64,000 nt of DNA. Source: Parcubacteria group bacterium GW2011_GWA1_56_13. GTDB lineage: Bacteria > Patescibacteriota > Minisyncoccia > Phycocordibacterales > Phycocordibacteraceae. Position 1 is the stretch's first letter; each line of letters opens with the position of its first letter. Below the pieces are notes generated by a model. The model saw nothing but the letters and a program-made list of their open reading frames with translations, had not been told where the DNA came from and did not search any database. This document shows positions 33,918-52,568 of this stretch, one piece after another. A program made the translations under genes and the position numbers. Location of the stretch: NCBI GenBank assembly GCA_001004905.1, contig LCRY01000002.1, positions 115,577-179,576 on the forward strand, read 5' to 3'.

Positions 33918-34232
33918 CTTGTGGTGGAAGGAACACGACAGAGTATTGGAAAAGCGCAAGTTCTTAAAAAAAGAAGTGGGGATAAGCGTTTAAACGTCGC
34001 ATCATGAAGGGCGTTACGCGCGGAAGTGTATAACTTTCGCCGTAGCGTGGCGTATTTACTAGCTTTTATTGGATGTCCACATATCCACAGGCCAAGCCGC
34101 TTGACCTACATGTTGATTTTATGAAGAGAAAGCGTATGGTTCGCATGTTAGGGGCAATAGACCTCCAAAAGGCCTTTCTTACGAGACCTCCAAGGGGCCG
34201 CCTTTATTAAAGTGCATAGCGCTTCATTAACC

Positions 34233-37037
34233 ATGAACTCTAAATATTTCGGTTTTGCACTCGGTGCGGTTCTCGCATTCGGCGCCGCCGCTCCTCTCGC
34301 GTTCGCGCAAGCGACATTGAACGTTATTCCGTTTGAACTGTCCTATACAGAAGGAGAAGCAACTGCTGAGTGGTCGAATGCTGAATTTAAAAACGGCAGT
34401 CACTCAATTTACCTGCAGACTACAGGGGAACAGGGTGCGGAGGGAAGAATTAGGATTGAGTTCCCTACAGTGACAACTCTAGAAGACATAACCTCAATCT
34501 CTTGGTGGACTAATACTGTCGGTGGTTATCCAGCGCATCTTGATATTACTCTCGAAACTAATGATGTGAATCAAAGTATGTTGACGGCAGAGATGGCCTA
34601 TAATAATGGTGATTGGGCAGGGAGCGCCACTACAGGTCAATGGCTTCAGACCTTTGAGTTAGCAGCAAACGATGGTGCTGGAGAAATAAATGATAATACA
34701 GTGTTTTGGGTAGCTAAATTAGGAGCTGGTGATCAGGATGCTCCATGGGGGACTCTTGCTAATTGGAAAGCTGGGCAAGTTGCGAACGATCCAGGTGGGG
34801 AACTTTCCAGTACGGAAATAAATTCAAGCACCCCCGTTTCTTTTGTTGAAATAGAAATTGACAACTGGATTAATCAATCTGAGGCATATGTTGATGGGAT
34901 TACCGTAAATGGTGTCACATACTATGGTCTCATTCAAGACGCAATTAACGCCGCAACTTCTGGCGACACGGTCAATGTCGCGGCGGGGACGTATACTGAA
35001 CCCATAGCGCGAGTTGCGGCTTGTGGAAATGAACCATCCTCTCTGTGTATAGATAAATCGCTTACGCTTCGCGGAGACCCTGGCGATGCCGCCGCTGGTC
35101 CCGGTTCAGATGCACCGGTTCTTGACGGTGCTGGTCTCGACGACGGTTCCGCAATCGCCTTGCTTCGCGACGGAAGCCCGATTTCCAATGTCATCATAGA
35201 AGGATTCATTATAAGAAACTACACGAATCCTAATGAGCAAGGCGGCACTGGGAGCGGTGTCATTGCTTGGAATACAGACGCTTCAAGCATTACTATTCAG
35301 GACAATTCATTTGAAGACCTTGGATGGAATGGAGTATTAGTGGGAAGCGATGACGACAGTGTCCAATCTGGCTGGACCGTTCAAAACAATGTGATTGATA
35401 ACGCTGCTTATGCTGGTGTTGAGTTGACAAACGTTACTAATTCTACCGTTTCGGGCAACACGATTACCGTTTCCAACGGCACCTGGGATGTCGGCGATTC
35501 TGGTGTCGGTATTGAAGTTGCGGTCCGTGACAATGGAACCGGTGTAACCGCTGGAGATACAATTGGTGTCACCGTATCCGGCAACACTATAACGGGCGGC
35601 GGTGCTGATGCACGGGCTGGTATCAATATCCTCTCGCGCGCATATCAAGCGACGTCAGATGCGTGGTTGATGAACGTAACGATAGAGGATAATACCGTTG
35701 ACGGAATTACGCCTCGCGGTATCCTTGTGGCCGCCGAACAGCGTAATGGGGGAGCCGCTTCTATTGCCGCACTTCACCTGTCAGGTAACACCGTCTCTAA
35801 TAATGAAGTAGGTATTGCGGTCGGCGTTCCCACAGGTTCAAGCGGAGTTAATGGCGGATATGAGCTACTCGTAAATGGCAATTCTGTATCTGGAAATACA
35901 GGTTCCGGAGTCCAAAACGCTTCTGGCGTCTTGTTTGATGCCACCAACAACTGGTGGGATGACGCGACGGGTCCTTCGGGAGAAGGAACGGGTAGCGGAG
36001 ATATGGTATCAACCGATGTTTCGTTCTTGCCGTGGTACGGCAATTCCTCGTTCCTGCCGCCAGGGACGGTTCCGGCTCCGGTCATCAGCCCGGAGAGCTC
36101 GTCGTTCCGCGTCTCCGTTGACGTGACGATTGGCGACTCCGTATCCGGCTCGACCGTTCATTACACGACGGACGGCACGACGCCCACGTGCAGTTCTGAC
36201 ACGTATACGGACGGGCAGGTACTGCACTTCAGTCAGCCGGTAACGGTCAATGCCATCCGTTGCGATTCCGGCGGCGCGGCAGTCCCGTCGGCCGTGTCGA
36301 GCGCGACCTACACCATAGCGAATAGCGGCGGCGGAGGCGGCGGAACTGCGACAGCAGCTACCGTAGCCCAGGCAGCAACGACTCCGGCGGCGACCCAGAC
36401 AGCCACGACGCCCGCAGTGACGACTCCGGCAGGCCAAGTGCTCGGTGCCGAGGCGTTCAACTTCACGGGTGACCTCCACATGAGCTCCTCGGGTTCGGAT
36501 GTAACCGAACTCCAAAAGGTCCTCATCGCCGCAGGGTTCGACATTCCGGCCATCACGAAGGGCGGCATAGCGTACGGCTATTTCGGTGGTCAGACGCTCG
36601 CGGCGGTCATCGCGTACCAAAAGGCGAACGGCGTCACCTCGACGGGCTACGTCGGCACGCTTACGCGTGCCGTGCTCAACAAGGGCGCGACGCCTTCAAC
36701 CGGTACGGCGGCCACGTCGGCGGCCGGCACGAAGCCCATGTTCACCAAGGCCCTCACGGTCGGCGTGCGCGATGCCGACGTGACGGCGCTCCAGCAATAT
36801 CTGACCGATAACGGCTTCTACAGCGGGCCCGTCACCGGCTACTTCGGCACGCTGACGAAAGCGGCGGTCCAGATATACCAGAAAGAGAAGGGAATCGCAC
36901 AGACCGGCGTCGTCGGCCCTCTGACCCGCGCCGAGCTCAACAAGGGCAAGGTCACGACGACGAATTCCGCGGCGGGCAGTACGGTCCTCACGGGCTCGGC
37001 GACGACCACTCCCGCTTCGGGAATGTCGGCCTACTGA
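34233..37037 (+). CDS. Secreted right-handed beta-helix (PbH1/pectate-lyase-fold) protein with two C-terminal peptidoglycan-binding (PG_binding_1) domains
   Basis: Signal peptide MNSKYFGFALGAVLAFGAAAPLAFAQA. Repeated GNTITG / SGNTVSNN beta-helix turns. Two LQKVL...GYFGGQT...YQKANG PG-binding repeats. Confidence 0.75.
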   Translation: MNSKYFGFALGAVLAFGAAAPLAFAQATLNVIPFELSYTEGEATAEWSNAEFKNGSHSIYLQTTGEQGAEGRIRIEFPTVTTLEDITSISWWTNTVGGYPAHLDITLETNDVNQSMLTAEMAYNNGDWAGSATTGQWLQTFELAANDGAGEINDNTVFWVAKLGAGDQDAPWGTLANWKAGQVANDPGGELSSTEINSSTPVSFVEIEIDNWINQSEAYVDGITVNGVTYYGLIQDAINAATSGDTVNVAAGTYTEPIARVAACGNEPSSLCIDKSLTLRGDPGDAAAGPGSDAPVLDGAGLDDGSAIALLRDGSPISNVIIEGFIIRNYTNPNEQGGTGSGVIAWNTDASSITIQDNSFEDLGWNGVLVGSDDDSVQSGWTVQNNVIDNAAYAGVELTNVTNSTVSGNTITVSNGTWDVGDSGVGIEVAVRDNGTGVTAGDTIGVTVSGNTITGGGADARAGINILSRAYQATSDAWLMNVTIEDNTVDGITPRGILVAAEQRNGGAASIAALHLSGNTVSNNEVGIAVGVPTGSSGVNGGYELLVNGNSVSGNTGSGVQNASGVLFDATNNWWDDATGPSGEGTGSGDMVSTDVSFLPWYGNSSFLPPGTVPAPVISPESSSFRVSVDVTIGDSVSGSTVHYTTDGTTPTCSSDTYTDGQVLHFSQPVTVNAIRCDSGGAAVPSAVSSATYTIANSGGGGGGTATAATVAQAATTPAATQTATTPAVTTPAGQVLGAEAFNFTGDLHMSSSGSDVTELQKVLIAAGFDIPAITKGGIAYGYFGGQTLAAVIAYQKANGVTSTGYVGTLTRAVLNKGATPSTGTAATSAAGTKPMFTKALTVGVRDADVTALQQYLTDNGFYSGPVTGYFGTLTKAAVQIYQKEKGIAQTGVVGPLTRAELNKGKVTTTNSAAGSTVLTGSATTTPASGMSAY

Positions 37038-37115
37038 TCGGTTTTCTCCACATAAACAACCCCCGCTTCGGCGGGGGTTGTTTATTTGTGAGATTCATTG
37101 TATCGTGATGACCAC

Positions 37116-38114
37116 ATGAAGGAACCTCGCAAGCCGCTCAAGCACCATCTCCACGACTATTTTTTTCCGCACGAGCGCAACCAGTACCGCCCGCATCTCT
37201 TCAGCAGCGCGTCCATCGCGGCGCTCGTCGTCGCGGTCGTCATGTTCGAGAGCGCGTATCTCGTGCAGACGAAATTCGTCTTTTTCAACACCGATTTCTT
37301 GGCGTCCGTATTGCCAGCGACGCTCGCCGCGCTCACGAACCAGGACCGCGCGATGAACAATCTCTCCGGCGTTACCGAGGACCCGCTTCTCGACCAGGCG
37401 GCGCAGGCGGCCGCGCTCGACATGGCGGCCAAGGGATATTTCGCTCACGTCTCTCCCGACGGGAAAACTCCGTGGTACTGGCTCGAGCAGGTCGGCTACA
37501 CATACAGCTACGCGGGACAGAACCTCGCCGTCAACTTCACCGATTCGGAGAATGTCGAATCGGCATGGATGGCTTCAGCGCCGCATCGCGCGAATATCAT
37601 GAAGCCGCAATACACGCACATCGGCTTCGGCACGGCAAACGGAATGTATGAAGGGCGGATGACCACCTTCGTCGTCGAATTTTTCGCGACCCCGGCGGCA
37701 GCGGCGGAGAAGACGGCGCTCGCAACACCGGCAGTGCCGGCAAAAACGGCGCTCGCAACACCGGCTCCAAAGGCGCCCACCTCCACCTCTCCCGTCAAGG
37801 TGCTCGGTTCGCAGGTCGACCAGCCGGGTGCGGCAGCGAGCGCCCCGGCAAGCGCTTCGCCGAATTGGCTCGCGCGTCTGCTCGCTTCGCCCCTCAATAC
37901 GCTCATCGCCATCTTTTCCATTCTGTTCTCGGTCATTGCGGCGGCGGGCATCATTGCGATTCTCATGCGGATGAAAGTCCCGCATCCAAGCGTACTCGTC
38001 GGCAGCGCGCTCGTGCTTGCGCTCATCGGCATTTCGACGCTGTTCAATTTCGAACTCGCAGGCCCGGTGCAGTTAAACGCTCAACCCGCGAGCGTAGAAG
38101 CGGCATTACCGTAG
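37116..38114 (+). CDS. CAP/SCP (PR-1-like, YkwD-type) domain protein with N- and C-terminal TM segments
   Basis: CAP motifs YAGQNLA and HYT-like PQYTHIGFG. Ala/Pro-rich linker and a C-terminal hydrophobic helix. Confidence 0.65.
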   Translation: MKEPRKPLKHHLHDYFFPHERNQYRPHLFSSASIAALVVAVVMFESAYLVQTKFVFFNTDFLASVLPATLAALTNQDRAMNNLSGVTEDPLLDQAAQAAALDMAAKGYFAHVSPDGKTPWYWLEQVGYTYSYAGQNLAVNFTDSENVESAWMASAPHRANIMKPQYTHIGFGTANGMYEGRMTTFVVEFFATPAAAAEKTALATPAVPAKTALATPAPKAPTSTSPVKVLGSQVDQPGAAASAPASASPNWLARLLASPLNTLIAIFSILFSVIAAAGIIAILMRMKVPHPSVLVGSALVLALIGISTLFNFELAGPVQLNAQPASVEAALP

Positions 38115-38175: not shown

Positions 38176-39387
38176 ATGCAGGAGCGCAAGGTCGCCGAAA
38201 TACTGGCGCGGCCCGCCATCTCCATTATCGAGCTGGTGGACGCGCTCATCGAGCATGCGCACACGCGCAGCGCCTCGGACATCCACATTGACCCGAGCCG
38301 CGCCGATATGCGCGTGCGCTTTCGCATTGACGGCGTACTGCAGGAAGTCCGTCAGCTGCCGAAGCGCATCCACTCCGAAATAATCGCGCGCATCAAGGTC
38401 ATGGCGGGCATGCGTACCGACGAGCATCAGGCCACGCAGGACGGGCGTTTTCGGCATGAGTGCGTAAACGGCGACACGCTCGATATCCGCGTTTCCATTG
38501 CCCCGACGTATCACGGAGAGAATGCCGTCCTGCGCCTGCTCTCCAATCACGCCGCCGCCTTCACGCTCGAGATGCTCGGCTTTAGCGATGCCGACCGCCG
38601 GAAGATACACGCGGCCATCAAGCGCCCTCACGGCATGATACTTTCCACGGGCCCGACCGATTCGGGCAAGACCACGACCCTCTACACGCTCATTCGAATG
38701 CTCAATTCGCCCGACGTTTCCATCGTTACCGTCGAAGACCCCATCGAATACGCGATCGACCAGGTGGAGCAGATACAGGTCGCGCCGCGCACTGGGCTGA
38801 CCTTCGCAAACGGTCTCCGCTCCATCCTGCGCCAAGACCCGAACATCATCATGGTCGGGGAAATACGCGACGCGGAAACGGCCGCCATCGCCGTCAATAC
38901 CGCGCTCACCGGGCACCTGCTGCTTTCGACGCTCCACACAAGCGACGCCGCCACCACGCTTCCGCGCCTCCTCGACATGGGCGTCGACGCCTACCTCGTG
39001 GCGTCCACGGTCAATATCGCCATCGGCCAGCGGCTGGTCCGCAGGATCTGCCCGTCATGCAAAACAGAAATGGCCATCACCGACGCGGCAGAAAAGACGC
39101 TCGCGGCCATCCCGCTTACGGAACCAATTGAGAGAGGCGCCGTTTTTTATCGCGGCAAAGGATGTAGCGCGTGCGGCGGCTCCGGATACGCGGGGCGACT
39201 GTGTATCAGCGAGGTGCTCGCGGCCGACCAGGGCATCCGCGAAGCCATCATGCGGCAAGCGTCGAGCGCGGAGATACGCACACTCGCCATCCATGGCGGC
39301 ATGACGACGATGCTCGAAGACGGAGTGCGCAAAGCGCGCAGGGGACATACGACCATCGAAGAGGTGCTCCGCGTCGTGTATGAGTAG
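38176..39387 (+). CDS. pilB: Type IV pilus / type II secretion assembly ATPase (GspE/PilB family, N-terminally minimal)
   Basis: Walker A LSTGPTDSGKTTTLY, Asp/His boxes, and the tetracysteine CPSCK...CSACGGSG typical of PilB/GspE. Confidence 0.85.
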   Translation: MQERKVAEILARPAISIIELVDALIEHAHTRSASDIHIDPSRADMRVRFRIDGVLQEVRQLPKRIHSEIIARIKVMAGMRTDEHQATQDGRFRHECVNGDTLDIRVSIAPTYHGENAVLRLLSNHAAAFTLEMLGFSDADRRKIHAAIKRPHGMILSTGPTDSGKTTTLYTLIRMLNSPDVSIVTVEDPIEYAIDQVEQIQVAPRTGLTFANGLRSILRQDPNIIMVGEIRDAETAAIAVNTALTGHLLLSTLHTSDAATTLPRLLDMGVDAYLVASTVNIAIGQRLVRRICPSCKTEMAITDAAEKTLAAIPLTEPIERGAVFYRGKGCSACGGSGYAGRLCISEVLAADQGIREAIMRQASSAEIRTLAIHGGMTTMLEDGVRKARRGHTTIEEVLRVVYE

Positions 39388-40459
39388 CGCGTTCTCGCCG
39401 TCGGCGTTCGTCCGCTTCTCGACGAAGGAGCGGACGTTTTTCGCCAAGCGCATGTCGTTTCTGGTAAAGGCGGGCATACCGCTCGTCGAGAGCTTGCACC
39501 TTATCCGCATGCAGACGAAGTCGCGAACCAAGAAAGGCGTGTATGACGCGGTCATCGCCGACGTGTCGAACGGGCAGTACCTCTCGACGAGCATGGGAAA
39601 GTTCAAGCGGCTTTTTGGCGACTTTTCCATCGGCCTCATTCGCGTGGGGGAGGAAAGCGGCATCTTGAGCCAGAATCTCGAGTACCTCGCGGAGGAACTC
39701 CAGAAAAAGCAGGCGCTCGAGCGCAAGGTCATCGGCACGCTCATCTATCCCGTTTTCATCATCGTGGCGACGCTCGGTGTGAGCACGGTGCTCACGGCGT
39801 ACATCTTTCCCAAACTCATGCCGATATTCACCAGCTTGCATATGACCCTCCCGCTCACGACCCGCGTGCTCATCGCGGTCTCGGCGTACCTGCGCGATTG
39901 GGGCGTTGCTACGTTCTTCGCTCTTATCGCATGCGCTGGCGCACTTGTATTCATTCGATACAGATTCGAACGCGTGCGCCTGTGGGGCGACCGCATGCTG
40001 CTACGCGTTCCGCTTGCAGGTAGCGTCGCGCGCGCATACAACCTTACGAATTTTTGCCGCACGCTCGGCCTCTTGCTGCGGAGCGGCGTTCCGCTCTTCG
40101 ATGCGATGGAGATAACCGGAGAAACGACCAAGAATCGCGTGTACCGGAAAGCATGCGCAAGTATCGCGTCGAGGATCATGCGCGGCGAATCTGTCTCGCG
40201 CGGCATGAGCGAGCGCCCCGACCTCTTTCCCGACACGCTCACGCATCTCGTCGCGGTGGGAGAGAAGACCGGCAATCTTTCCTCGACACTCACCTATCTC
40301 GGAGAGCTGTATGAAGAAGAAGTGGGAGAACTGACAAAAGGTCTTTCGAACTCCATAGAGCCGGCACTCATGGTGGTGATGGGGCTTTTAGTCGGGCTTA
40401 TTGCCGTGTCGGTCATTACGCCGATATATGAAATAACCCAACATTTGGGTCCGCGATAG
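39380..40459 (+). CDS. pilC: Type IV pilus platform protein (GspF/PilC family)
   Basis: Two T2SSF repeats and three TM helices; 8-nt overlap with pilB. Confidence 0.85.
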   Translation: MSSAFSPSAFVRFSTKERTFFAKRMSFLVKAGIPLVESLHLIRMQTKSRTKKGVYDAVIADVSNGQYLSTSMGKFKRLFGDFSIGLIRVGEESGILSQNLEYLAEELQKKQALERKVIGTLIYPVFIIVATLGVSTVLTAYIFPKLMPIFTSLHMTLPLTTRVLIAVSAYLRDWGVATFFALIACAGALVFIRYRFERVRLWGDRMLLRVPLAGSVARAYNLTNFCRTLGLLLRSGVPLFDAMEITGETTKNRVYRKACASIASRIMRGESVSRGMSERPDLFPDTLTHLVAVGEKTGNLSSTLTYLGELYEEEVGELTKGLSNSIEPALMVVMGLLVGLIAVSVITPIYEITQHLGPR

Positions 40460-40461
40460 GT

Positions 40462-40887
40462 ATGCGCAGACGTGGTTTTACTCTGATAGAAATAATCATT
40501 GTCGTCGCGATATTCTCCGTTCTCATTTCACTCGGCCTTTTCATGAGCATGGAGACCCTTCGCGGCACGCTCAACCGTTCCGAGCGCGACATCGTGGTGA
40601 GCGCGCTGCAAAAGGCGCGCAGCCGGGCGCTTGCGAATATGCAGCAAGCGCCATGGGGCGTGTGCTACATCGCGCCCGACTACATCGTCTTCCGCGGTTT
40701 CGAGTGCGCTCCCGGACTGCCGACGAACGAAACCGTTCCGGCAAACACCGCGAATTCCATCGTGTTTCCTTCGCCCATAGTTTTCTCACAGCTTTCGGCA
40801 ACGACCACCGGCGGTTCCATAACGATCGCGCAGGACGGGCGCACCGCGACGATAACCGTCAATCAAGAGGGCATGATCGACTGGTAA
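40462..40887 (+). CDS. Type IV pilin/pseudopilin with class III signal (MRRRGFTLIEIIIVVAIFSVL)
   Basis: Prepilin peptidase cleavage motif G/FTLIE with Glu+5 and a hydrophobic N-terminal helix. Confidence 0.75.
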   Translation: MRRRGFTLIEIIIVVAIFSVLISLGLFMSMETLRGTLNRSERDIVVSALQKARSRALANMQQAPWGVCYIAPDYIVFRGFECAPGLPTNETVPANTANSIVFPSPIVFSQLSATTTGGSITIAQDGRTATITVNQEGMIDW

Positions 40888-45729: not shown

Positions 45730-45760
45730 CAAGACCGCCGTAGGCGGTCTTTTGTTTTAT
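45730..45760. terminator. Bidirectional intrinsic terminator (aagaccgcc-gta-ggcggtctt flanked by T-rich tracts on both strands)
   Basis: Perfect 9-bp stem with TTGTTTTAT after it on plus and a T-run on minus; between convergent Zn-ribbon and dedA genes. Confidence 0.6.
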
Positions 45761-46374
45761 ACCGCGCGCTTGCCGCGCGCGAAATTGAGGAAAAGAGGCA
45801 AGAAGGAGATAATGACGATGGCAAGCGAAAGGGGCAGGATGTATGTCTCGCTGTTGGGAATTATCGAACCAAGGAAGAATCCGAGCGATATCATACCTGC
45901 GCCCCAGAGGCACCCGCCGAGCGCGTTGTAGGCGAGAAAAGTGCGGTAGTTCATGCTTCCGATGCCGGCGAGGATGGGCGCGATGGTGCGCACGATGGGA
46001 ACGAAGCGCGCGAGTACGACCGCGCGCCCGCCATAGGCCTGGTAGAAGCGCTCCGTGCGCCGCAGGTATTCCTGCTTGAAGAAGCGCGAGTCCTTGCGCT
46101 TGAAAAAATTGGCACCCACGTTCGCACCGAACCAATACCCGACCGAATCACCGATTATCGCCGCAAGGACGACGGACACGATAAGGGGAGCCAATGCGAG
46201 CACCCCGCCGCCGGAGAGAAGTCCTGCAGCGAAGAGCAGGGAATCGCCCGGAAAGAAAATACCAAAGAGAAGGCCGCTCTCGGCGAAGACGATGAGAGCG
46301 ATGCCGATGTAGCTCCCCGTTTTTACGATGGCTACCGGGTCCAGATTTATACACGCGTAAATGAAATCGAGCAT
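45757..46374 (-). CDS. DedA/VTT-domain family membrane protein
   Basis: FFPGDSLLFAAGLL and ...ARFVPIVRTIAPILAG DedA signature regions. Start MLDFIY at 46374. Confidence 0.8.
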   Translation of the reverse strand: MLDFIYACINLDPVAIVKTGSYIGIALIVFAESGLLFGIFFPGDSLLFAAGLLSGGGVLALAPLIVSVVLAAIIGDSVGYWFGANVGANFFKRKDSRFFKQEYLRRTERFYQAYGGRAVVLARFVPIVRTIAPILAGIGSMNYRTFLAYNALGGCLWGAGMISLGFFLGSIIPNSETYILPLSLAIVIISFLPLFLNFARGKRAV

Positions 46375-46397
46375 TCTCGTGGAGTATACTGTAATAA

Positions 46398-49172
46398 ATG
46401 GAGTCAACGCCGAAGTTGTCCACGCCCGAAGAGGAACTCGCGTATTTGCGCGAGCAAGTAACGCGTAAAGAGGCCGAGCTCGCCCTCCGACAGAGCTCAG
46501 AACAAGCCGGTGCGGAGCAGGCAACGATCATTTCGGAGACGGTTCGTGAACACCACGCGGCTCCCGCCGAGATACTCGCGCCGCAATACCGCATAAGCGA
46601 AGCGACGAAGAAGAGCGAAGCGGACGCGATACGCGCCGAACTCAACCTCGGCCGAAGCGAACAGGCGATACAGGGCCTCCAGCGGACGATGGAGGAAAAA
46701 GGGATAAAGAACGCGCTCGCAGTGCTTGAAAAGCTTCATGACCCGCACGTAACGGATGATTTTCATCGGTATCTCGTGCGCCATATCGCGGCAGGACTTC
46801 CGGCTCCCGGCGTTGATGAAAAAACACCCCGATTTCAGGCGCTCCGCATGACGCTGTACGAGATCGCCCTTCCAGGGGCAAAAAGCGTCGAAGCGCACGA
46901 GCGCGCAAAAACCCTGAAAGAGCTCATCTCCGGCATGGAGCAGTTCTATGCGGGACTTCTTTCGGTGAAAGACGCTTCGATGGGCGAGCCGCACTACTAT
47001 GCGCTTGAGCTCGCCGTGCCCGCCAACAGTCCCGAGCTCCAATTCTATGCGGCGGTGCCGAACGGGAAAAAGAATCTTTTTGAAAAGCAACTCCTTGCGG
47101 TATTTCCCGACGCGCATCTGGTGCCACAGACCTCCGATTACAATATCTTCGCTCCGGGCGGCACATCGCTCGCTTCCACCGCCCGTTTCGCGGAACATCC
47201 GGCACTCCCTTTAAAGGATTACACTGAGTTTGATTACGATCCGCTGAACACGATCACGAACGCATTCGCAAAAATAGAACAGGCGGGGGAGGGGGCGGCA
47301 CTCCAGATCATCATCGAGCCCCGCGCCGAGCGGCACGTGACGCATTATCGGAAAATACTTCACGCGCTTCGGAAGGGAGAGAAGCATACGGCGGCATTTT
47401 CGACGCCGGAGACGGCATTCGGCGAGATCGCGCGCGATATCGGCCGGACGCTCTTCCGGAGCAAGCCCAAAGACGAACAAAAGGCAAAAGAGGCCGAGAC
47501 GCGCCAGATCGAGGCGAACAAGACGCATATCGAGCAGGTGGAGAAAAAAATCGCCGCGCCCATCGTCGGTGCCACCATCCGGCTCGTTGCCTCCTCGAGC
47601 GATGCGCGTAAGGCGGAACAGGTGCTCGGCGAGCTCGAGGCGGCGTTCAATCAATTCGCCAATACGCAGGGAAATCGGCTCGAATTCGCACGCGCTACCC
47701 CGCGGCAGGCGCAGAGTGTTTTCGAGGATTTTTCCTTCCGCCTCCCGAATCTCTCTGCGCTCCCGCTCTCGCTTCGCGAGCTCACGACGCTCTACCATTT
47801 CCCGCCGTCGGGCATCGAAAGTTCGCCGCATTTGAGGCAGGCGCGCTTTACGCACGCCCCCGCGCCGCTTTCCTTACCGCATGCGGGCACTCTGCTTGGC
47901 GTGAACGTGTACCGCGGGGAGCGGACGGAGATCCGCATTGAACCGGAGGACCGCCTGCGCCATCTCTATATCATCGGTCAGACCGGCACCGGCAAGACGG
48001 GGCTCATGAAGTCAATGATCATCCAAGATATCGCCGCGGGCGAAGGATGCTGTTTCATTGACCCGCACGGCACCGACATTCTGGATATTCTCGCCTCTGT
48101 GCCGCCCGAACGTTACAAGGACGTCATTTATTTCGACCCCGCAGACCTGTCCCGCCCGTTCGGCCTCAACTTTCTGGAATACGACTTCTCGCGCCCGGAG
48201 CAGAAGACCTTCATCGTGAACGAGCTTCTGATGATATTTAAGCGGCTGTATGGCGACGTGCCGGAGAGCATGGGTCCGGCTTTCGAACAATACTTCCGCA
48301 ACGCGACCCAGCTCGTGATGGAAGACCCTGCGAGCGGTTCAACCATGCTCGACATTGCTCGCGTGCTTTCCAACGCAGAATTCCGGCGCCAGAAGCTTGC
48401 GAAAAGCATGAACCCAATCGTGAATCAGTTCTGGAACGAGATAGCGACGAAGGCCGGAGGCGAAGCGTCGCTCGAAAATATCGTGCCGTATATCACGAAC
48501 AAGTTCGACGACTTCACCGCGAACGACTTTATACGGCCCATCATCGGCCAGCAGGACTCGTCCTTCAAGTTCCGCGAGGTCATGGACACGAAGAAGATAC
48601 TGCTCGTCAATCTCTCCAAGGGACGCCTGGGTGAACGGAACGCGAACCTGCTCGGCCTCGTCATCGTGGGGAAGCTCTTCATGGCCGCGCTCTCTCGCGC
48701 CGACAATCCGCGCGCAGCGCATGCTCCGTTCTATCTCTACATAGACGAATTCCAGAACGTCACCACCGATTCTATTCCCGGAATCCTTTCGGAGGCACGC
48801 AAGTACAAGCTCGCTCTCACTCTTGCGCACCAGTTCCTCGCCCAGATAGAAGAGAGGGCGCGGGATGCCGTCTTCGGCAACGTTGGCAACATGGCGGTCT
48901 TCCGCGTTGGCGAAGAGGACGCTGAATTCTTCGCCAAGCAATTCGCGCCGGTCTTTGAGGCGCTCGATTTCGTCAATATCGAGAACCGCAGCGCATATAT
49001 GAGGATACTCGCGAAGGGCATTCCGCAGAAACCATTCGACCTAAGGACCGCCGATTTGCCCGCAGGAAATCCCACGCAAGTGGACGACCTTATCCAGCTT
49101 TCGTCACTCACGTACGGCCGCGACCATGCTACAGTTGAAAGCATGATACGAGAGCGTTATCTCTCGCATTAA
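46398..49172 (+). CDS. FtsK/HerA-superfamily ATPase of the VirB4/VirD4 (TraG) clade with a ~480-aa N-terminal domain of unknown function
   Basis: Walker A IIGQTGTGKTGLM and Walker B YLYIDEFQNV. Arg finger EARKYKLALTLAHQFLAQ (TraG-D_C-like Q motif). No TM helices. TATACT -10 7 nt before the ATG. Confidence 0.7.
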   Translation: MESTPKLSTPEEELAYLREQVTRKEAELALRQSSEQAGAEQATIISETVREHHAAPAEILAPQYRISEATKKSEADAIRAELNLGRSEQAIQGLQRTMEEKGIKNALAVLEKLHDPHVTDDFHRYLVRHIAAGLPAPGVDEKTPRFQALRMTLYEIALPGAKSVEAHERAKTLKELISGMEQFYAGLLSVKDASMGEPHYYALELAVPANSPELQFYAAVPNGKKNLFEKQLLAVFPDAHLVPQTSDYNIFAPGGTSLASTARFAEHPALPLKDYTEFDYDPLNTITNAFAKIEQAGEGAALQIIIEPRAERHVTHYRKILHALRKGEKHTAAFSTPETAFGEIARDIGRTLFRSKPKDEQKAKEAETRQIEANKTHIEQVEKKIAAPIVGATIRLVASSSDARKAEQVLGELEAAFNQFANTQGNRLEFARATPRQAQSVFEDFSFRLPNLSALPLSLRELTTLYHFPPSGIESSPHLRQARFTHAPAPLSLPHAGTLLGVNVYRGERTEIRIEPEDRLRHLYIIGQTGTGKTGLMKSMIIQDIAAGEGCCFIDPHGTDILDILASVPPERYKDVIYFDPADLSRPFGLNFLEYDFSRPEQKTFIVNELLMIFKRLYGDVPESMGPAFEQYFRNATQLVMEDPASGSTMLDIARVLSNAEFRRQKLAKSMNPIVNQFWNEIATKAGGEASLENIVPYITNKFDDFTANDFIRPIIGQQDSSFKFREVMDTKKILLVNLSKGRLGERNANLLGLVIVGKLFMAALSRADNPRAAHAPFYLYIDEFQNVTTDSIPGILSEARKYKLALTLAHQFLAQIEERARDAVFGNVGNMAVFRVGEEDAEFFAKQFAPVFEALDFVNIENRSAYMRILAKGIPQKPFDLRTADLPAGNPTQVDDLIQLSSLTYGRDHATVESMIRERYLSH

Positions 49173-49176
49173 ACCT

Positions 49177-51687
49177 ATGGCCAAACAAGAACGGCCCCCC
49201 CGTAAAATCAAAAGAGGACCCGAGATGTCTCCTGCTGCGCCTAAGACCACGGTGGGCATTGCTTTGGAAGAAGCGATTAAGAAAAATGGCGGTTGGCACC
49301 CGAATGGGTCCGAGGATGAGGCGCAGGCGGAAGCGGTACGGCGGTGGGAAAACGAAGGAGGAAGGATAGTCGAGGAGCCGAAAACGGAGAAGCGGGCAGA
49401 ACAAGCGTCGGAGAACATAGAGGAATTTCGAGACCTTATACATAAGGCGATAGAAAATCCGCCGGAAACGCCTGCACCGAACCGATTTTCAGGACCCGCA
49501 GAGGCTGCCTATCGTGAACTTGCTGAAATTACGAGAAGAGCAGGGGTTAAACCGGAAGATTTGGATGAAAAAGTGTGGAAGGGTGCTAACGCGGCGCTGG
49601 ATAAGGTCAAAAGATTCGCTCAATTGCGCTCTGAAACGCAGGATAAGGAGAAAATAAAGCAGCTAGATGAGCGGATTCGACAGGCGACCGCCAGTTTGGT
49701 AAGTAGAAAAATGAGAGAGAAAATTGAAAAAGCAGCGCGAGAGACTCTAGAAAAAGAAAAATCGAAAGTAAAAACCGAGGTGGCGGGTGCTACAGATGCA
49801 ACTACAAAGGTCAACTCTAAGGCGGAGTCTGAGGCGCCACATCCGGAAGAAGACGGCGGCGACGCGGTGCCGCCTGAGCAGTCGAAGGCAGAACGGGAGA
49901 ATCTCTACGAACTTTACACGAGAAAGCAGAGGGAAAATGCCGCACCTGCTGACTCGATAGCGGCGGAACCGGCAACTCCCAAGTCAGCAGAACAACTGCA
50001 AGCCGAAAACGAGATGCTGCGGAGAATAGGAAAAAAGCTTTCCGCTACAGAGATGAGGGAGCCGACACAAGAGGAAGTCGGACACATGGCTGTCAGTCCG
50101 GAAGATGTTCCGGAACACATCCGGGAACGTCTCGCCGCCGAGGGCACGAGAAGCGAGATGGTCGAGCGTCTGAAAGGCGTAGTCCGAAGCGCGCAAGGGA
50201 AGCTGTACGAAGCGGGTGTTGCGGCGCAGGAAAAAATCGCGTGGTGGAAGAGCTCCGAAGAGCATCTTGTCCGGCGCTCGGCGGAATTGGATGCCGAGGC
50301 GGCGGAGATTGGCTGGGTGGAAAGCGAGTTCAGGAAATGGGGCGAGCGCTATAACAAAGTCGGCTGGAAGACGAAACTCGCTGTAGGCCTTGCTCTTGGT
50401 ATCGGAGCAGGACTTTCCGCACCTGTCTCGATGCCTATGGCCGCTGCTTGCCTGTTTGGCGTCGCAGCCCAGCGCATCCTCGGTCTCTCGACGATGTATC
50501 TGAAATACGAGAAGGTATTCCAAGATCAAAAATGGGGGAAGGAGCGTGCCATGCTGAATGCAATTGGATATTCCGCCCTCATGACCGCGGGCACGATGTA
50601 CGCGGTACAAAAAATCAGCGATGCCGACATAGTCAGCCGCGTCCGCGAATGGCTTGCCGATAAGCTGGGACACCAGACGCCGCCGAGGCCGGAAGTATCG
50701 CAGCCGATGGTTACAACGGGTACGGGTCCCGGTGCAGAGATACCGCCGCTCACCGTCCATGCGGCGCCCGGGCAAGGTTACGAGTACATGCTGCAGCGGA
50801 TGTGGGAACAGTTGCAGGACAAGGGCCTCGACCCGAACCGGTATCCCGAAGGCAGCGATATTCGGCAGCTGCTTGAAACGGCGCCGCAAGATATCGACAA
50901 GGTCGTGCATCAGCTTGCGAGCGACCCGAGCCATGGCTTCTTCAGGCCCGACGGCACAAGCGCGCCCATCGGAAAAGGCGATATTCTGGCGTTCAACACG
51001 GGCGGCCAGATACTGCACATAAACCCCGAAGGCGTGGCCGGCGTTCACGCGGCTATCGAAGCGCCTGTGCCGGTCTACCATCCGGAAGTTCCTACTCCCG
51101 CGTCCGCAGTGCCGCTTCCCGAACAGGTCGTCCCCGCGCAAGATCCGGTAGCGAACATAGACCTCACTCCCGGCCAACAGGCAGTACAAGAAGGAACGCA
51201 GGCCGCGGTCACCGCGGCCCCGCCCCCTGAAGCGATGCCGCGAGAGCCCGAACACATACTCTTGCGCGACAGCTCCGGCAACCCGGTCACCGACAGCTCC
51301 GGGAACCCGGTCCGCTCGCAATTCCCCGAACACGCCGCATCCATTGAGGCGCCTATTGCGAACGCCGAGGTCGTCTCAAATCAGTTCGGTCTCGCGATAC
51401 CGGTCACCGAACCGCATATCTACGGTGACGAGGGCGGACAGCAGATACTTGTGTACGGCGGGACGCCGCAAGAGCAGCTGAAGGCGATGCAGGACTTTCT
51501 CATAAAAAATCCGGGCAAAGTCGTTTTCGGCACCGATCCTTCCGGGAAATACCGCATTCCCTGGGGGCTCGTGGAAGGGGAATTATCGCCTATCGGCCAG
51601 CCAGTGCGCACGAGCGGCTTCTTCGGATTCTTTTCGTCCTTTATGGAAGCGCCCGGAGCGGATGAACTAAAGCAGCTTATTAAATAA
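49177..51687 (+). CDS. Large hypothetical membrane protein (836 aa): charged coiled-coil N-terminus, 3 central TM helices, Pro-rich C-terminus
   Basis: Coding-like composition with a purine-rich 5' part. TM segments LAVGLALGIGAGL, AAACLFGVAAQRIL, AIGYSALMTAGTMYAV. 4-nt gap after the ATPase gene. Confidence 0.55.
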   Translation: MAKQERPPRKIKRGPEMSPAAPKTTVGIALEEAIKKNGGWHPNGSEDEAQAEAVRRWENEGGRIVEEPKTEKRAEQASENIEEFRDLIHKAIENPPETPAPNRFSGPAEAAYRELAEITRRAGVKPEDLDEKVWKGANAALDKVKRFAQLRSETQDKEKIKQLDERIRQATASLVSRKMREKIEKAARETLEKEKSKVKTEVAGATDATTKVNSKAESEAPHPEEDGGDAVPPEQSKAERENLYELYTRKQRENAAPADSIAAEPATPKSAEQLQAENEMLRRIGKKLSATEMREPTQEEVGHMAVSPEDVPEHIRERLAAEGTRSEMVERLKGVVRSAQGKLYEAGVAAQEKIAWWKSSEEHLVRRSAELDAEAAEIGWVESEFRKWGERYNKVGWKTKLAVGLALGIGAGLSAPVSMPMAAACLFGVAAQRILGLSTMYLKYEKVFQDQKWGKERAMLNAIGYSALMTAGTMYAVQKISDADIVSRVREWLADKLGHQTPPRPEVSQPMVTTGTGPGAEIPPLTVHAAPGQGYEYMLQRMWEQLQDKGLDPNRYPEGSDIRQLLETAPQDIDKVVHQLASDPSHGFFRPDGTSAPIGKGDILAFNTGGQILHINPEGVAGVHAAIEAPVPVYHPEVPTPASAVPLPEQVVPAQDPVANIDLTPGQQAVQEGTQAAVTAAPPPEAMPREPEHILLRDSSGNPVTDSSGNPVRSQFPEHAASIEAPIANAEVVSNQFGLAIPVTEPHIYGDEGGQQILVYGGTPQEQLKAMQDFLIKNPGKVVFGTDPSGKYRIPWGLVEGELSPIGQPVRTSGFFGFFSSFMEAPGADELKQLIK

Positions 51688-51695
51688 CGCATGCT

Positions 51696-52028
51696 ATGAT
51701 GACACCCATGCAGGATGAACTGACCGCCGCTATCGCCGCCGAACTCGGGATAGCGGGGCTTCCGAAGGAGCAGCAACAGACCTTGATAGGGGAGTTCGGC
51801 GAGGTCGCGCTCAAAGCCGCGACCTTGTCGGTCGTCGGCAAGCTTGCTCCGGAAAAGCGTGATGAGTTCGGGAAACTCGCGCAGGCGGGCGACGCAGGAG
51901 CGGTCAAAGCGTTCCTCGATAGGGAAGTCCCGGGCCATGAGGAAACTGCAAAAGCGGCTGTCGCCGAGGAGGTGAAGCGCTTTAAGGCCTTCCAGGTCGC
52001 AGATACTGACGCAGGAAGTACGCCGTAG
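51696..52028 (+). CDS. Small hypothetical protein (110 aa, Ala/Glu-rich)
   Basis: 8-nt gap after the preceding gene and internally repetitive helical pattern; no known motif. Confidence 0.4.
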   Translation: MMTPMQDELTAAIAAELGIAGLPKEQQQTLIGEFGEVALKAATLSVVGKLAPEKRDEFGKLAQAGDAGAVKAFLDREVPGHEETAKAAVAEEVKRFKAFQVADTDAGSTP

Positions 52029-52058
52029 TATACTTGCGCCATTAACCATTACCATACT

Positions 52059-52568
52059 ATGCAACCAACCCAAACCGGCATCGCAGTCGCACTTGCACTT
52101 GTCGTCGTTTCATTATTCTTTATCGTTCCCGGTCTTTGGCCATTCGGAGCAGTGACCGCTTCGAACGAAGCGGTTCTCGGAGCCAGCACGGAAACGGAAA
52201 CCACAACTACCATGCCAACCGAACCCGTGACAGAACTTATGGTGAAGGATGAGACCGTCGGCAGCGGCGCCGTTGCCGCCGTCGGAGACACCGTGACGGT
52301 GAATTATGTCGGCTCGCTTACGAACGGCACCGTCTTTGACGCTTCCGCGAACCACGGTTCCGCCGGCTTCACGTTCACGCTCGGAGCGGGACAGGTCATC
52401 AAGGGTTGGGACCAGGGTATCGCCGGCATGAAAGAGGGAGGGAAGCGCGTGCTCATTATTCCCGCGTCGCTCGCGTACGGCTCACAAGCGGTCGGGGATG
52501 CCATTCCGGCAAATTCCACCCTCGTTTTTGAAGTGGAACTCTTGAAGGTGCAGAAAGCGGCTCGATAG
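52059..52568 (+). CDS. FKBP-type peptidyl-prolyl cis-trans isomerase with N-terminal TM anchor
   Basis: FKBP core GDTVTVNYVGSLTNGTVFDAS...FTLGAGQVIKGWDQGI...LVFEVELL. Confidence 0.8.
   Translation: MQPTQTGIAVALALVVVSLFFIVPGLWPFGAVTASNEAVLGASTETETTTTMPTEPVTELMVKDETVGSGAVAAVGDTVTVNYVGSLTNGTVFDASANHGSAGFTFTLGAGQVIKGWDQGIAGMKEGGKRVLIIPASLAYGSQAVGDAIPANSTLVFEVELLKVQKAAR

Follow-up and report, generated by a model that had tools for sequence, protein, structure and literature searches.

The 64,000-nucleotide (nt) window analysed here (contig LCRY01000002.1, positions 115,577 to 179,576) is a stretch of core chromosome from Candidatus Kaiserbacteria, within the Candidate Phyla Radiation (CPR/Patescibacteria), and carries rpoB, rpoC, dnaG, rpoD, smc, RNase R, tgt, uvrB and uvrA. 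It also contains three co-oriented genes, which encode an ATPase of 924 amino acids (aa), an 836-aa membrane protein and a 110-aa small protein. The spacing between them is 4 nt and 8 nt, and the open reading frames (ORFs) lie on the forward strand exactly where the initial annotation of this DNA had placed them. All three are real genes and not chance ORFs, because each has homologues or family matches; homologues of the ATPase number more than 1,100, and NCBI lists an identical protein from a Candidatus Kaiserbacteria bacterium (455-kb contig). The neighbouring genes are housekeeping genes (FKBP, tgt, uvrB and uvrA). Coordinates are given in Table 1.

Table 1. Features of the three-gene locus, of other genes in the window and of a convergent gene in related loci. 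Positions are window nucleotides unless a locus is named; NBD, nucleotide-binding domain; HMM, hidden Markov model; AF2, AlphaFold 2.
Feature	Position	Strand	Residues or size	Basis or remark
ATPase gene	46398-49172	+	924 aa	ORF call
u141 domain of ATPase, all-helical	46398..46817	+	aa 1-140	local HMM
DUF8128 (PF26449) of ATPase, alpha/beta	46830..47882	+	aa 145-495	precomputed Pfam annotation
TrwB/VirD4-like NBD of ATPase	47883..49169	+	aa 496-924	Pfam, hhalign, Foldseek
Walker A, GQTGTGKT	47976-47999	+	aa 527-534	
All-alpha insert in NBD	48198-48545	+	aa 601-716	AF2 model
Walker B, FYLYIDEFQ	48729-48755	+	aa 778-786	
RKYK...AHQFLAQ motif, SEARKYKLALTLAHQFLAQ	48789-48845	+	aa 798-816	
Membrane protein gene	49177-51687	+	836 aa	ORF call
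Sole region of membrane protein conserved across lineages	50137..50478	+	aa 321-434	hhalign
Small protein gene	51696-52028	+	110 aa	ORF call
Promoter-like site, ATGAAA-18 nt-TATACT	46361..46390	+		consensus scan, weak evidence
DedA/VTT-family gene	45757-46374	-	205 aa	divergent; start 23 nt from ATPase ATG
CAP/SCP-domain protein	37098-38114			precedes pilus set
PilB-like T2SSE ATPase	38176-39387			
PilC-like T2SSF	39380-40459			
GspH-like pseudopilin	40462-40887			
Convergent protein of Moranbacteria-type loci, examples	L049:10347-12830, L054:6017-8422, L055:11870-14449, L080:10792-13290	-		also L096, L098, L105, L114

The catalytic motifs listed in the initial annotation are all present in the ATPase, and the residues of Walker A, Walker B and SEARKYKLALTLAHQFLAQ are invariant or nearly so in an alignment of 150 homologues. 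An AF2 model (150 homologues) has a mean predicted local distance difference test score (pLDDT) of 84.8 and divides into helical (aa 10-132), alpha/beta (aa 151-465) and P-loop (aa 498-924) domains. At the level of this model, the NBD holds an insert of six helices between strands 576-579 and 734-738. The protein has no transmembrane (TM) helix, as had been noted. The top value in a 19-residue Kyte-Doolittle hydropathy scan is 1.55 at aa 748-769, and the model shows this hydrophobic peak as a buried helix of the ATPase fold.

We compared the ATPase with the main classes of related motors. Two Pfam families pass their cutoffs, TraG-D_C (25.9 bits, cutoff 22) and TrwB_AAD_bind (23.4, cutoff 20.5). 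DUF87 falls below its own (20.0 bits, cutoff 23.2), and FtsK_SpoIIIE gives no match at E<=0.1. The top NCBIfam matches are TraD families and VirD4-like CD1115 (aa 518-842), all of them far under the curated cutoffs (TIGR03743 49.7 against 366, TIGR03754 34.8 against 647, NF045973 34.8 against 250); the VirB4 models score 11.6 bits against 643 (TIGR00929) and 14.5 against 590 (NF045975). For a comparison of classes by hhalign, a family profile from 30 diverse members was aligned to reference proteins. R388 TrwB, a type IV coupling protein (T4CP), aligns at 95.5% probability (E=1.4e-8) over 267 columns, through TrwB residues 115-392. R388 TrwK, a VirB4 protein, aligns at 11.9% (E=0.0025) over 81 columns in the Walker A region only, and the E. 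coli FtsK motor aligns at 24% (E=8e-4) over 58 columns around Walker B only. In Foldseek, the ATPase domain matches TrwB with target-normalised template-modelling scores (TM-scores) of 0.63-0.67 and matches Cag-beta too; the match to HerA is weaker (0.49-0.53). The best Foldseek E-value belongs to full-length TrwK (5.7e-13, ~910-937 columns), yet the TM-scores are poor (0.28-0.32). The scan for neighbouring genes covered the 33 larger ORFs of the 64 kb, with ~20 smaller ORFs outside it, and found no NurA-like neighbour among the ORFs scanned.

By profile and predicted fold, we assign the ATPase to the VirD4/TrwB coupling-protein class and not to VirB4, FtsK or HerA. The VirB4/VirD4 clade of the initial annotation is retained as a superfamily, and its VirB4 part is dropped since TrwB aligns so much better than TrwK. 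The absence of firm clustering with FtsK agrees with that annotation; the HerA-like system it also entertained is not supported, with DUF87 below threshold and no NurA. The likeness to T4CPs (VirD4/TrwB/TraD; Pfam T4SS-DNA_transf, TrwB_AAD_bind, TraG-D_C) lies in a homologous NBD with Walker A and B, the RK...Q motif and the all-alpha insert. Unlike T4CPs, the window ATPase has two domains ahead of the NBD, DUF8128 (~350 aa) and the fused helical one (140 aa). T4CPs typically have two N-terminal helices, whereas the window ATPase has none and its relatives have one. The gene is chromosomal and vertically inherited. It lacks three marks of a T4CP, namely the TM anchor, linkage to a type IV secretion system (T4SS) or relaxase, and scores above the curated NCBIfam cutoffs. 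Relaxase, VirB4, VirB6, VirB8 and other T4SS genes are all missing among the 33 window ORFs scanned, as the initial annotation had found for the relaxase, VirB6 and VirB8. VirB4 (TrwK) resembles the window protein in its layout, a C-terminal P-loop domain preceded by an alpha/beta region of ~400 aa at the N-terminus, in ~800 aa total, but differs by the TM-scores and hhalign value above and by the absence here of VirB3, VirB6 or VirB8 neighbours.

The N-terminal 480 aa, initially described as a single unassignable domain, consist of two domains. The first, u141, has the conserved motif EKGIKNAL...DPH..DDFHR.LV (aligned form EKG(I/V)..A(L/V)...(D/N)P(H/Y)..D.FH..L), and no PDB or Pfam relative of it was found. 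Elsewhere in Patescibacteria, u141 has a gene of its own (~140 aa), which immediately precedes that of a shorter ATPase, and an HMM built from the separate genes matches aa 1-139 of the window ATPase with E=5.9e-39. We took 80 loci from GTDB species representatives for local ORF analysis; counts are stated over 81 loci. The u141 HMM matches in 64 of the 81, with u141 fused to the ATPase in 42 and separate in 22, where it ends -4 to 183 nt ahead of the ATPase. The other 17 loci have no u141 match, and seven of these start within 150 nt of a contig end and have no upstream sequence. The short form of the ATPase (~790-850 aa), found in Moranbacteria, Falkowbacteria, Komeilibacteria, Azambacteria and others, has an N-terminal TM helix. 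The long form (~905-935 aa), found in Kaiserbacteria (window included), Adlerbacteria, Taylorbacteria, Nomurabacteria and others, has none. Unfused ATPases carry a single N-terminal TM helix and fused ones carry none. Because the unfused relatives have both a separate u141 and an N-terminal TM helix, the window ATPase reads as a Rosetta-stone fusion with u141 that lost its membrane anchor.

The second N-terminal domain is DUF8128, which Pfam assigns in precomputed annotation to the identical protein P0001 and to all listed homologues. In AF2 secondary structure, it includes a low-confidence helical insert (aa 330-384) and ends in a conserved LYHFP motif. Profile searches of PDB and Pfam returned no relative of DUF8128. 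Its hhalign comparison with TrwK gives 0.2%, and the sequence profiles confirm no kinship to the VirB4 N-terminal domain. Literature searches for DUF8128 and for DUF5663, the family of the small protein discussed below, returned no papers.

After a K/E-rich helical part (aa 1-398), the membrane protein has a hydrophobic hairpin of 33 aa (aa 401-433), one more TM segment (aa 458-477) and a C-terminal part (aa 481-836) with 43 prolines. This layout is the one first described for it. The AF2 model is poor (pLDDT 57), and only aa 525-620 and 735-836 are confident; they appear as two small folded domains joined by Pro-rich linkers within the C-terminal part. K/R counts flanking the hydrophobic segments fit an N-in, C-out topology, which would place aa 1-398 in the cytoplasm and aa 481-836 outside it. 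Scans with Pfam, NCBIfam, PHROG and PADLOC are all empty, Foldseek against PDB returns nothing below E=0.8 and a PDB profile search returns nothing. Only 11 homologues are detectable among 5.8 billion proteins. In genomes where UvrB is 79-84% identical, orthologues of the membrane protein are 28-32% identical to the window protein over part of its length, and the protein evolves very fast, like a surface-exposed protein.

Conservation across lineages is confined to a juxtamembrane and TM core (aa 321-480). The conserved region at aa 321-434 contains WWKSSEEHL..., F.K.GE.YNK..WKTKLAVG and the hydrophobic hairpin, which ends in QR. The Kaiserbacteria-type and Moranbacteria-type profiles (32 sequences in the latter) align by hhalign at 97.9% probability (E=3.3e-13) over 99 columns, after 94% (E=1.2e-7) in a first pass. 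The aligned part of both consists of a pre-membrane helix, the F.K.GE.YNK..WK.KL motif and the hydrophobic hairpin.

The small protein, which had been called unassignable, is assigned by transitive homology to the DUF5663 family (PF18908). It is acidic (18 D+E against 12 K+R), Ala/Glu-rich, helical and without tryptophan. The window protein itself scores 18.2 bits (E=0.0038) to DUF5663, under the gathering score of 23.7. A local family HMM matches it with E=1.7e-32, and relatives joined to it by this HMM score above the Pfam threshold (27.8, 29.1 and 25.1 bits), hence the probable membership. One homologue carries a precomputed Pfam DUF5663 annotation. The DUF5663 profile also matches the Z-domain repeats of staphylococcal protein A (E=7e-9 summed over four; single domains 0.02-0.7). 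We rejected homology to protein A, and the likeness is probably to a three-helix bundle at the level of an 'LP.L.EEQ...I' helix motif. An IcmW match of one DUF5663 member (E=0.046) was dismissed as noise.

The same families occur together in distant lineages. Among the 81 loci, which were fetched from the ATPase side, DUF5663 adjoins the ATPase in 17 by local HMM, and it does so in two gene orders. In the first (Kaiserbacteria-, Adlerbacteria- and L041/L069-type), the ATPase is followed by a 580-1045-aa central-TM protein and DUF5663. In the second (Moranbacteria-type), an 850-1020-aa central-TM protein is followed by DUF5663, u141 and the ATPase. An independent metagenome scan, seeded with five Moranbacteria-type DUF5663 proteins, recovered 40 loci, with identities of 33-79%. 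Where at least 1.5 kb of downstream sequence is available, 26 of 27 loci contain the ATPase, and where at least 1.5 kb of upstream sequence is available, the membrane-protein HMM matches in 25 of 29. Of the four without a match, the three inspected have an ORF of 785-1124 aa directly upstream, with a central TM segment in two; L125 is the fourth. Because the membrane proteins of both lineages share a core and the partners recur in both orders, the sequences describe a module of four conserved parts, here with two of them fused and with permuted order. The co-occurrence of the three genes in other genomes is thus upheld, while their coupling as first proposed changes in two respects: the parts are four and not three, and they adjoin the ATPase in only 17 loci.

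In the Nomurabacteria-, Taylorbacteria- and Zambryskibacteria-type loci (L009-L033), the ATPase stands alone in the order secY-adk-map-ATPase-ndk-RNase J. Examples are L010 (4922-12209) and L011 (2411-3682). There the gene comes after the ribosomal-protein cluster, which ends in secY-adk-map, and for a T4CP homologue such a position is strikingly 'core'. We considered two recurrent neighbours, ~198 aa and ~258 aa long, as partners and rejected them. By sequence reading alone they resemble Ndk and methionine aminopeptidase, and since the scan identified SecY, Adk and RNase J as neighbours in the same loci, we regard them as housekeeping synteny. Moranbacteria-type loci have, just beyond the 3' end of the ATPase gene, a recurrent convergent gene for a protein of ~740-910 aa that contains one central TM segment and matches no Pfam family. 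This protein may be a lineage-specific fifth component, and the window has no homologue of it.

The ATPase belongs to a large family. In an exhaustive search of representatives, one for each 50%-identity cluster, 20,726 match at E<1e-3 and 5,302 do so at E<1e-30, and the common core spans query residues ~150-920. Within Kaiserbacteria, the ATPase is 80-85% identical across more than 100 clusters. In the same genomes, ATPase identities of 82, 80, 76 and 71% compare with 84, 83, 81 and 79% for UvrB, and the NBD alone reaches 85-87%; the ATPase is as conserved as UvrB. Some family members are much longer (P0185, P0189, P0190, P0194 and P0204, 1,270-2,000 aa), with an N-terminal TM helix, DUF8128, the ATPase and then a 450-1,200-aa Pro/Ala-rich low-complexity tail that ends in a conserved L(A/S)PGE(V/I)(Y/F)(V/I)D..GNV..G. 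We considered whether such long members (1,200-2,000 aa) are fusions of the ATPase to the membrane protein and rejected this, the extension being the Pro/Ala-rich tail with no TM segment. In P0177, a relative of 1,210 aa, an unrelated N-terminal region precedes two tandem T4CP-like ATPase domains.

Bacillus phage proteins (phage G gp156, phage JL S5MSQ0, PHROG 5156) likewise combine DUF8128 with a T4CP-like ATPase. By hhalign, phage G gp156 aligns at 100% probability (E=2.7e-57) over 710 columns, and PHROG 5156 matches with E=1.7e-63; Foldseek against BFVD reaches E=3.8e-40, and the phage JL match has TM-scores of 0.59/0.60. Unlike the module, the phage homologues have no u141, no large membrane partner and no DUF5663 neighbour. 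In phage G (L083 3249-7391), gp156 directly follows gp155, which the depositors annotated as VirB-like. In temperate B. cereus-group phages (L126, L127), the homologue lies in the early region near repressor, recombination and replication genes. These temperate-phage homologues are misannotated as 'lipid A export/MsbA', and one phage homologue is annotated 'DNA helicase or translocase'.

A membrane-tethered coupling or translocation motor complex is the most likely function of the module. We hold in roughly even balance the fuller proposal that the three genes form one operon encoding a Patescibacteria-specific coupling complex around the VirD4/TrwB-class ATPase. The reduced or novel translocation module suggested in the initial annotation is plausible. 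With its catalytic residues intact, the T4CP-type NBD implies a motor that is hexameric, associated with the membrane and driven by nucleoside triphosphates, and by analogy with T4CPs the ATPase presumably forms such a hexamer at the membrane. The TM helix is lost at the very place where u141 is fused, which suggests that anchoring has passed to another protein. The adjoining membrane protein, whose coiled-coil half and K/R-rich juxtamembrane motif would face the cytoplasm, is the obvious candidate, and the anchor-less ATPase would be held at the membrane by this coiled-coil half, probably via the u141 domain.

On the other side of the membrane, which the 836-aa protein would cross, its Pro-rich linkers and two fast-evolving domains may reach through the wall to the surface, in analogy with VirB10 and TonB. 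These proteins would share with it a bitopic layout with a cytoplasmic N-terminus, an anchor, a Pro-rich spacer and a C-terminal folded domain, and coupling to an inner-membrane ATPase; VirB10 senses ATP use by VirD4. Unlike VirB10 and TonB, to which homology was not detected, the window protein has a ~400-aa cytoplasmic coiled coil and ~three membrane passes and belongs to a monoderm host. The DUF5663 protein would be an adaptor or regulator of the ATPase, as IcmS/IcmW and CagZ are for their T4CPs, and less likely a cargo. The closest analogue in concept is the Legionella Dot/Icm coupling complex, in which DotL is joined by DotM, DotN, IcmS/IcmW and LvgA. The likeness would be one of architecture only, a T4CP with a membrane partner and small acidic co-encoded adaptors; the partners have no sequence or fold similarity, and the membrane partner here is larger, with a Pro-rich extracytoplasmic half.

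The complex would spend ATP on recruiting a macromolecular substrate, protein or nucleic acid, and on driving it across the envelope. The phage homologues in early and replication regions lean the choice of substrate towards DNA. The complex may either feed the phylum's chromosomal T4SS, encoded elsewhere, or use a partner of its own, and we favour the T4SS only slightly. In Patescibacteria, 5,713 VirD4-type homologues have been counted in 2,918 of 3,035 genomes, with only 148 of them near virB4, and the authors of that count suggested that the orphan T4CP homologues are 'possibly exapted' (PMC12102498). The T4SS cluster of Southlakia, essential in Patescibacteria, has no recognizable coupling protein (PMC10633639).

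Several points weigh against a coupling complex. We infer every step beyond a conserved module with a T4CP-type ATPase, physical interaction included. No T4SS, relaxase or channel gene adjoins the module in the window or among the characterised neighbours of related loci, where neighbours were characterised for a subset and most neighbouring genes carry no annotation. The topology of the membrane protein is deduced solely from the positive-inside rule, and with only ~three TM segments the protein bears no likeness to any known channel. In most of the Paceibacteria loci (64 of 81), no membrane protein/DUF5663 pair lies within 8 kb of the ATPase, which means that the pair can be dispensed with, has its genes elsewhere or is missing there. 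The T4CP homologue of S. epibionticum, which may or may not be of the DUF8128 type, is reported as not essential in transposon sequencing (PMC12102498). T4CP homologues occur in more genomes than VirB4 (2,918 against 2,417; PMC12102498), which argues against an obligatory T4SS partnership. The phage homologues, having no partners and lying in early and replication regions, hint at a role in DNA handling.

That VirD4-type homologues outnumber VirB4 across genomes makes an autonomous role a serious rival, even if we think it unlikely. The ATPase would then sit on an oligomeric conduit of the membrane protein and secrete independently of a T4SS, in the manner of type VII systems, with DUF5663 as cargo or chaperone. 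In favour of this, the four-gene cassette is self-contained, T4SS genes are not found near it, and the surface part of the membrane protein evolves very fast. In the EssC/EsxA layout, a ~100-aa helical protein is encoded beside a hexameric P-loop ATPase and bitopic membrane proteins, and the cassette would resemble it by analogy. Against type VII kinship, the ATPase has a single NBD of T4CP type and is not of FtsK/EssC type; DUF5663 has no W-x-G motif, and the window protein has no tryptophan at all. About three TM segments per subunit and no known channel fold make a weak case for a conduit, and export of DUF5663 has no evidence. We give the same low weight to the wider view of a Patescibacteria-specific, T4SS-independent envelope translocation machine, in which a T4CP-derived motor would dock on the fast-evolving, surface-reaching membrane protein and move host nucleic acids or effector proteins between the ultrasmall episymbiont and its host. 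Somewhat more doubtful still is a nucleic-acid motor, in which the ATPase would pump or remodel DNA or RNA, for example in taking up host nucleic acids, chromosome handling or repair, and the membrane protein would position it. T4CPs such as TrwB are DNA-dependent ATPases, and the early-region setting and helicase or translocase annotation among the phage homologues point the same way, as does the position of the module beside uvrB and uvrA in the window. CPR bacteria rely on their hosts for nucleotides, and feeding on host RNA has been reported in a preprint of 2026. However, Pfam and NCBIfam scans detected no DNA-binding domain in any module protein, the ATPase falls outside both FtsK and HerA, and the phylum already has ComEC-based competence. 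The uvrAB adjacency is limited to Kaiserbacteria-type loci, with secY, adk, map and ndk in its place elsewhere.

The two remaining explanations seem to us highly improbable. An anti-phage defence system or conjugative-element remnant with a HerA/T4CP-like ATPase is suggested by weak PADLOC matches to mad8 (E=2.8e-12), DndH and HerA and by the carriage of homologues in phages. The PADLOC matches, however, are limited to the generic P-loop domain, and conservation at housekeeping level, stable synteny and host-like GC content speak against this reading; the ATPase is near-universal in the phylum, whereas defence islands and mobile elements are patchy, and the scanned window ORFs include no nuclease, methylase, integrase or relaxase nearby. 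The three genes could also be neighbours by synteny only, with no functional link, as many unrelated housekeeping genes are likewise syntenic among close relatives and the pair does not adjoin the ATPase in the 64 loci mentioned above. Here the linkage outlasts changes of gene order and ~60% sequence divergence, the independent search that started from DUF5663 found it again in 26 of the 27 testable loci, and the u141 partner is found both fused and unfused. The 4-nt and 8-nt gaps, moreover, indicate co-translation.

Part of this module is already catalogued, since the ATPase family is included in Pfam as DUF8128 and in the counts of 'orphan T4CP' homologues. We found no published description of fused and unfused u141, the membrane partner, the DUF5663 link or the permutation of the cassette. 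Patescibacteria account for a large part of bacterial diversity and live at the expense of other cells, and transport at the host interface is largely a gap in knowledge. The 'orphan' VirD4 homologues gain a defined architecture (helical partner, DUF8128, T4CP-type NBD) and two conserved partners, and three families that had no known function become one testable complex. Should the module turn out to be an independent transporter or the coupling complex that the T4SS lacks, it would be central to the episymbiotic way of life.

A scan for promoter consensus sites found four, against 2.7 expected, one of which precedes the ATPase gene and overlaps the start of the divergent DedA/VTT gene. Its TATACT -10-like box ends 7 nt ahead of the ATPase ATG, and the ATPase mRNA may therefore be leaderless. 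A second TATACT box lies ahead of the FKBP gene (window 52006-52059).

A type IV pilus gene set is present ~6 kb upstream of the module (38.2-40.9 kb). We rejected a link between the two: DsbA-like, ZIP transporter and holin_4_2 genes intervene, and the precomputed annotation of two close relatives contains no pilus genes. Further upstream, a 941-aa protein (34212-37037) combines a right-handed beta-helix, a chitobiase C-terminal domain and two peptidoglycan-binding domains, and may be a surface or cell-wall-acting enzyme. It falls within the lowest-GC stretch of the window (32-36 kb; 0.49-0.52 against ~0.58) and was possibly acquired horizontally.

Antisense ORFs of up to 449 aa run over real genes in the window (for example 49984-51333, reverse strand) and have no homologues. 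Opposite the DUF5663 gene lies an antisense ORF of 120 aa (51680-52042, reverse strand). The long antisense ORFs are a by-product of the 58% GC content.

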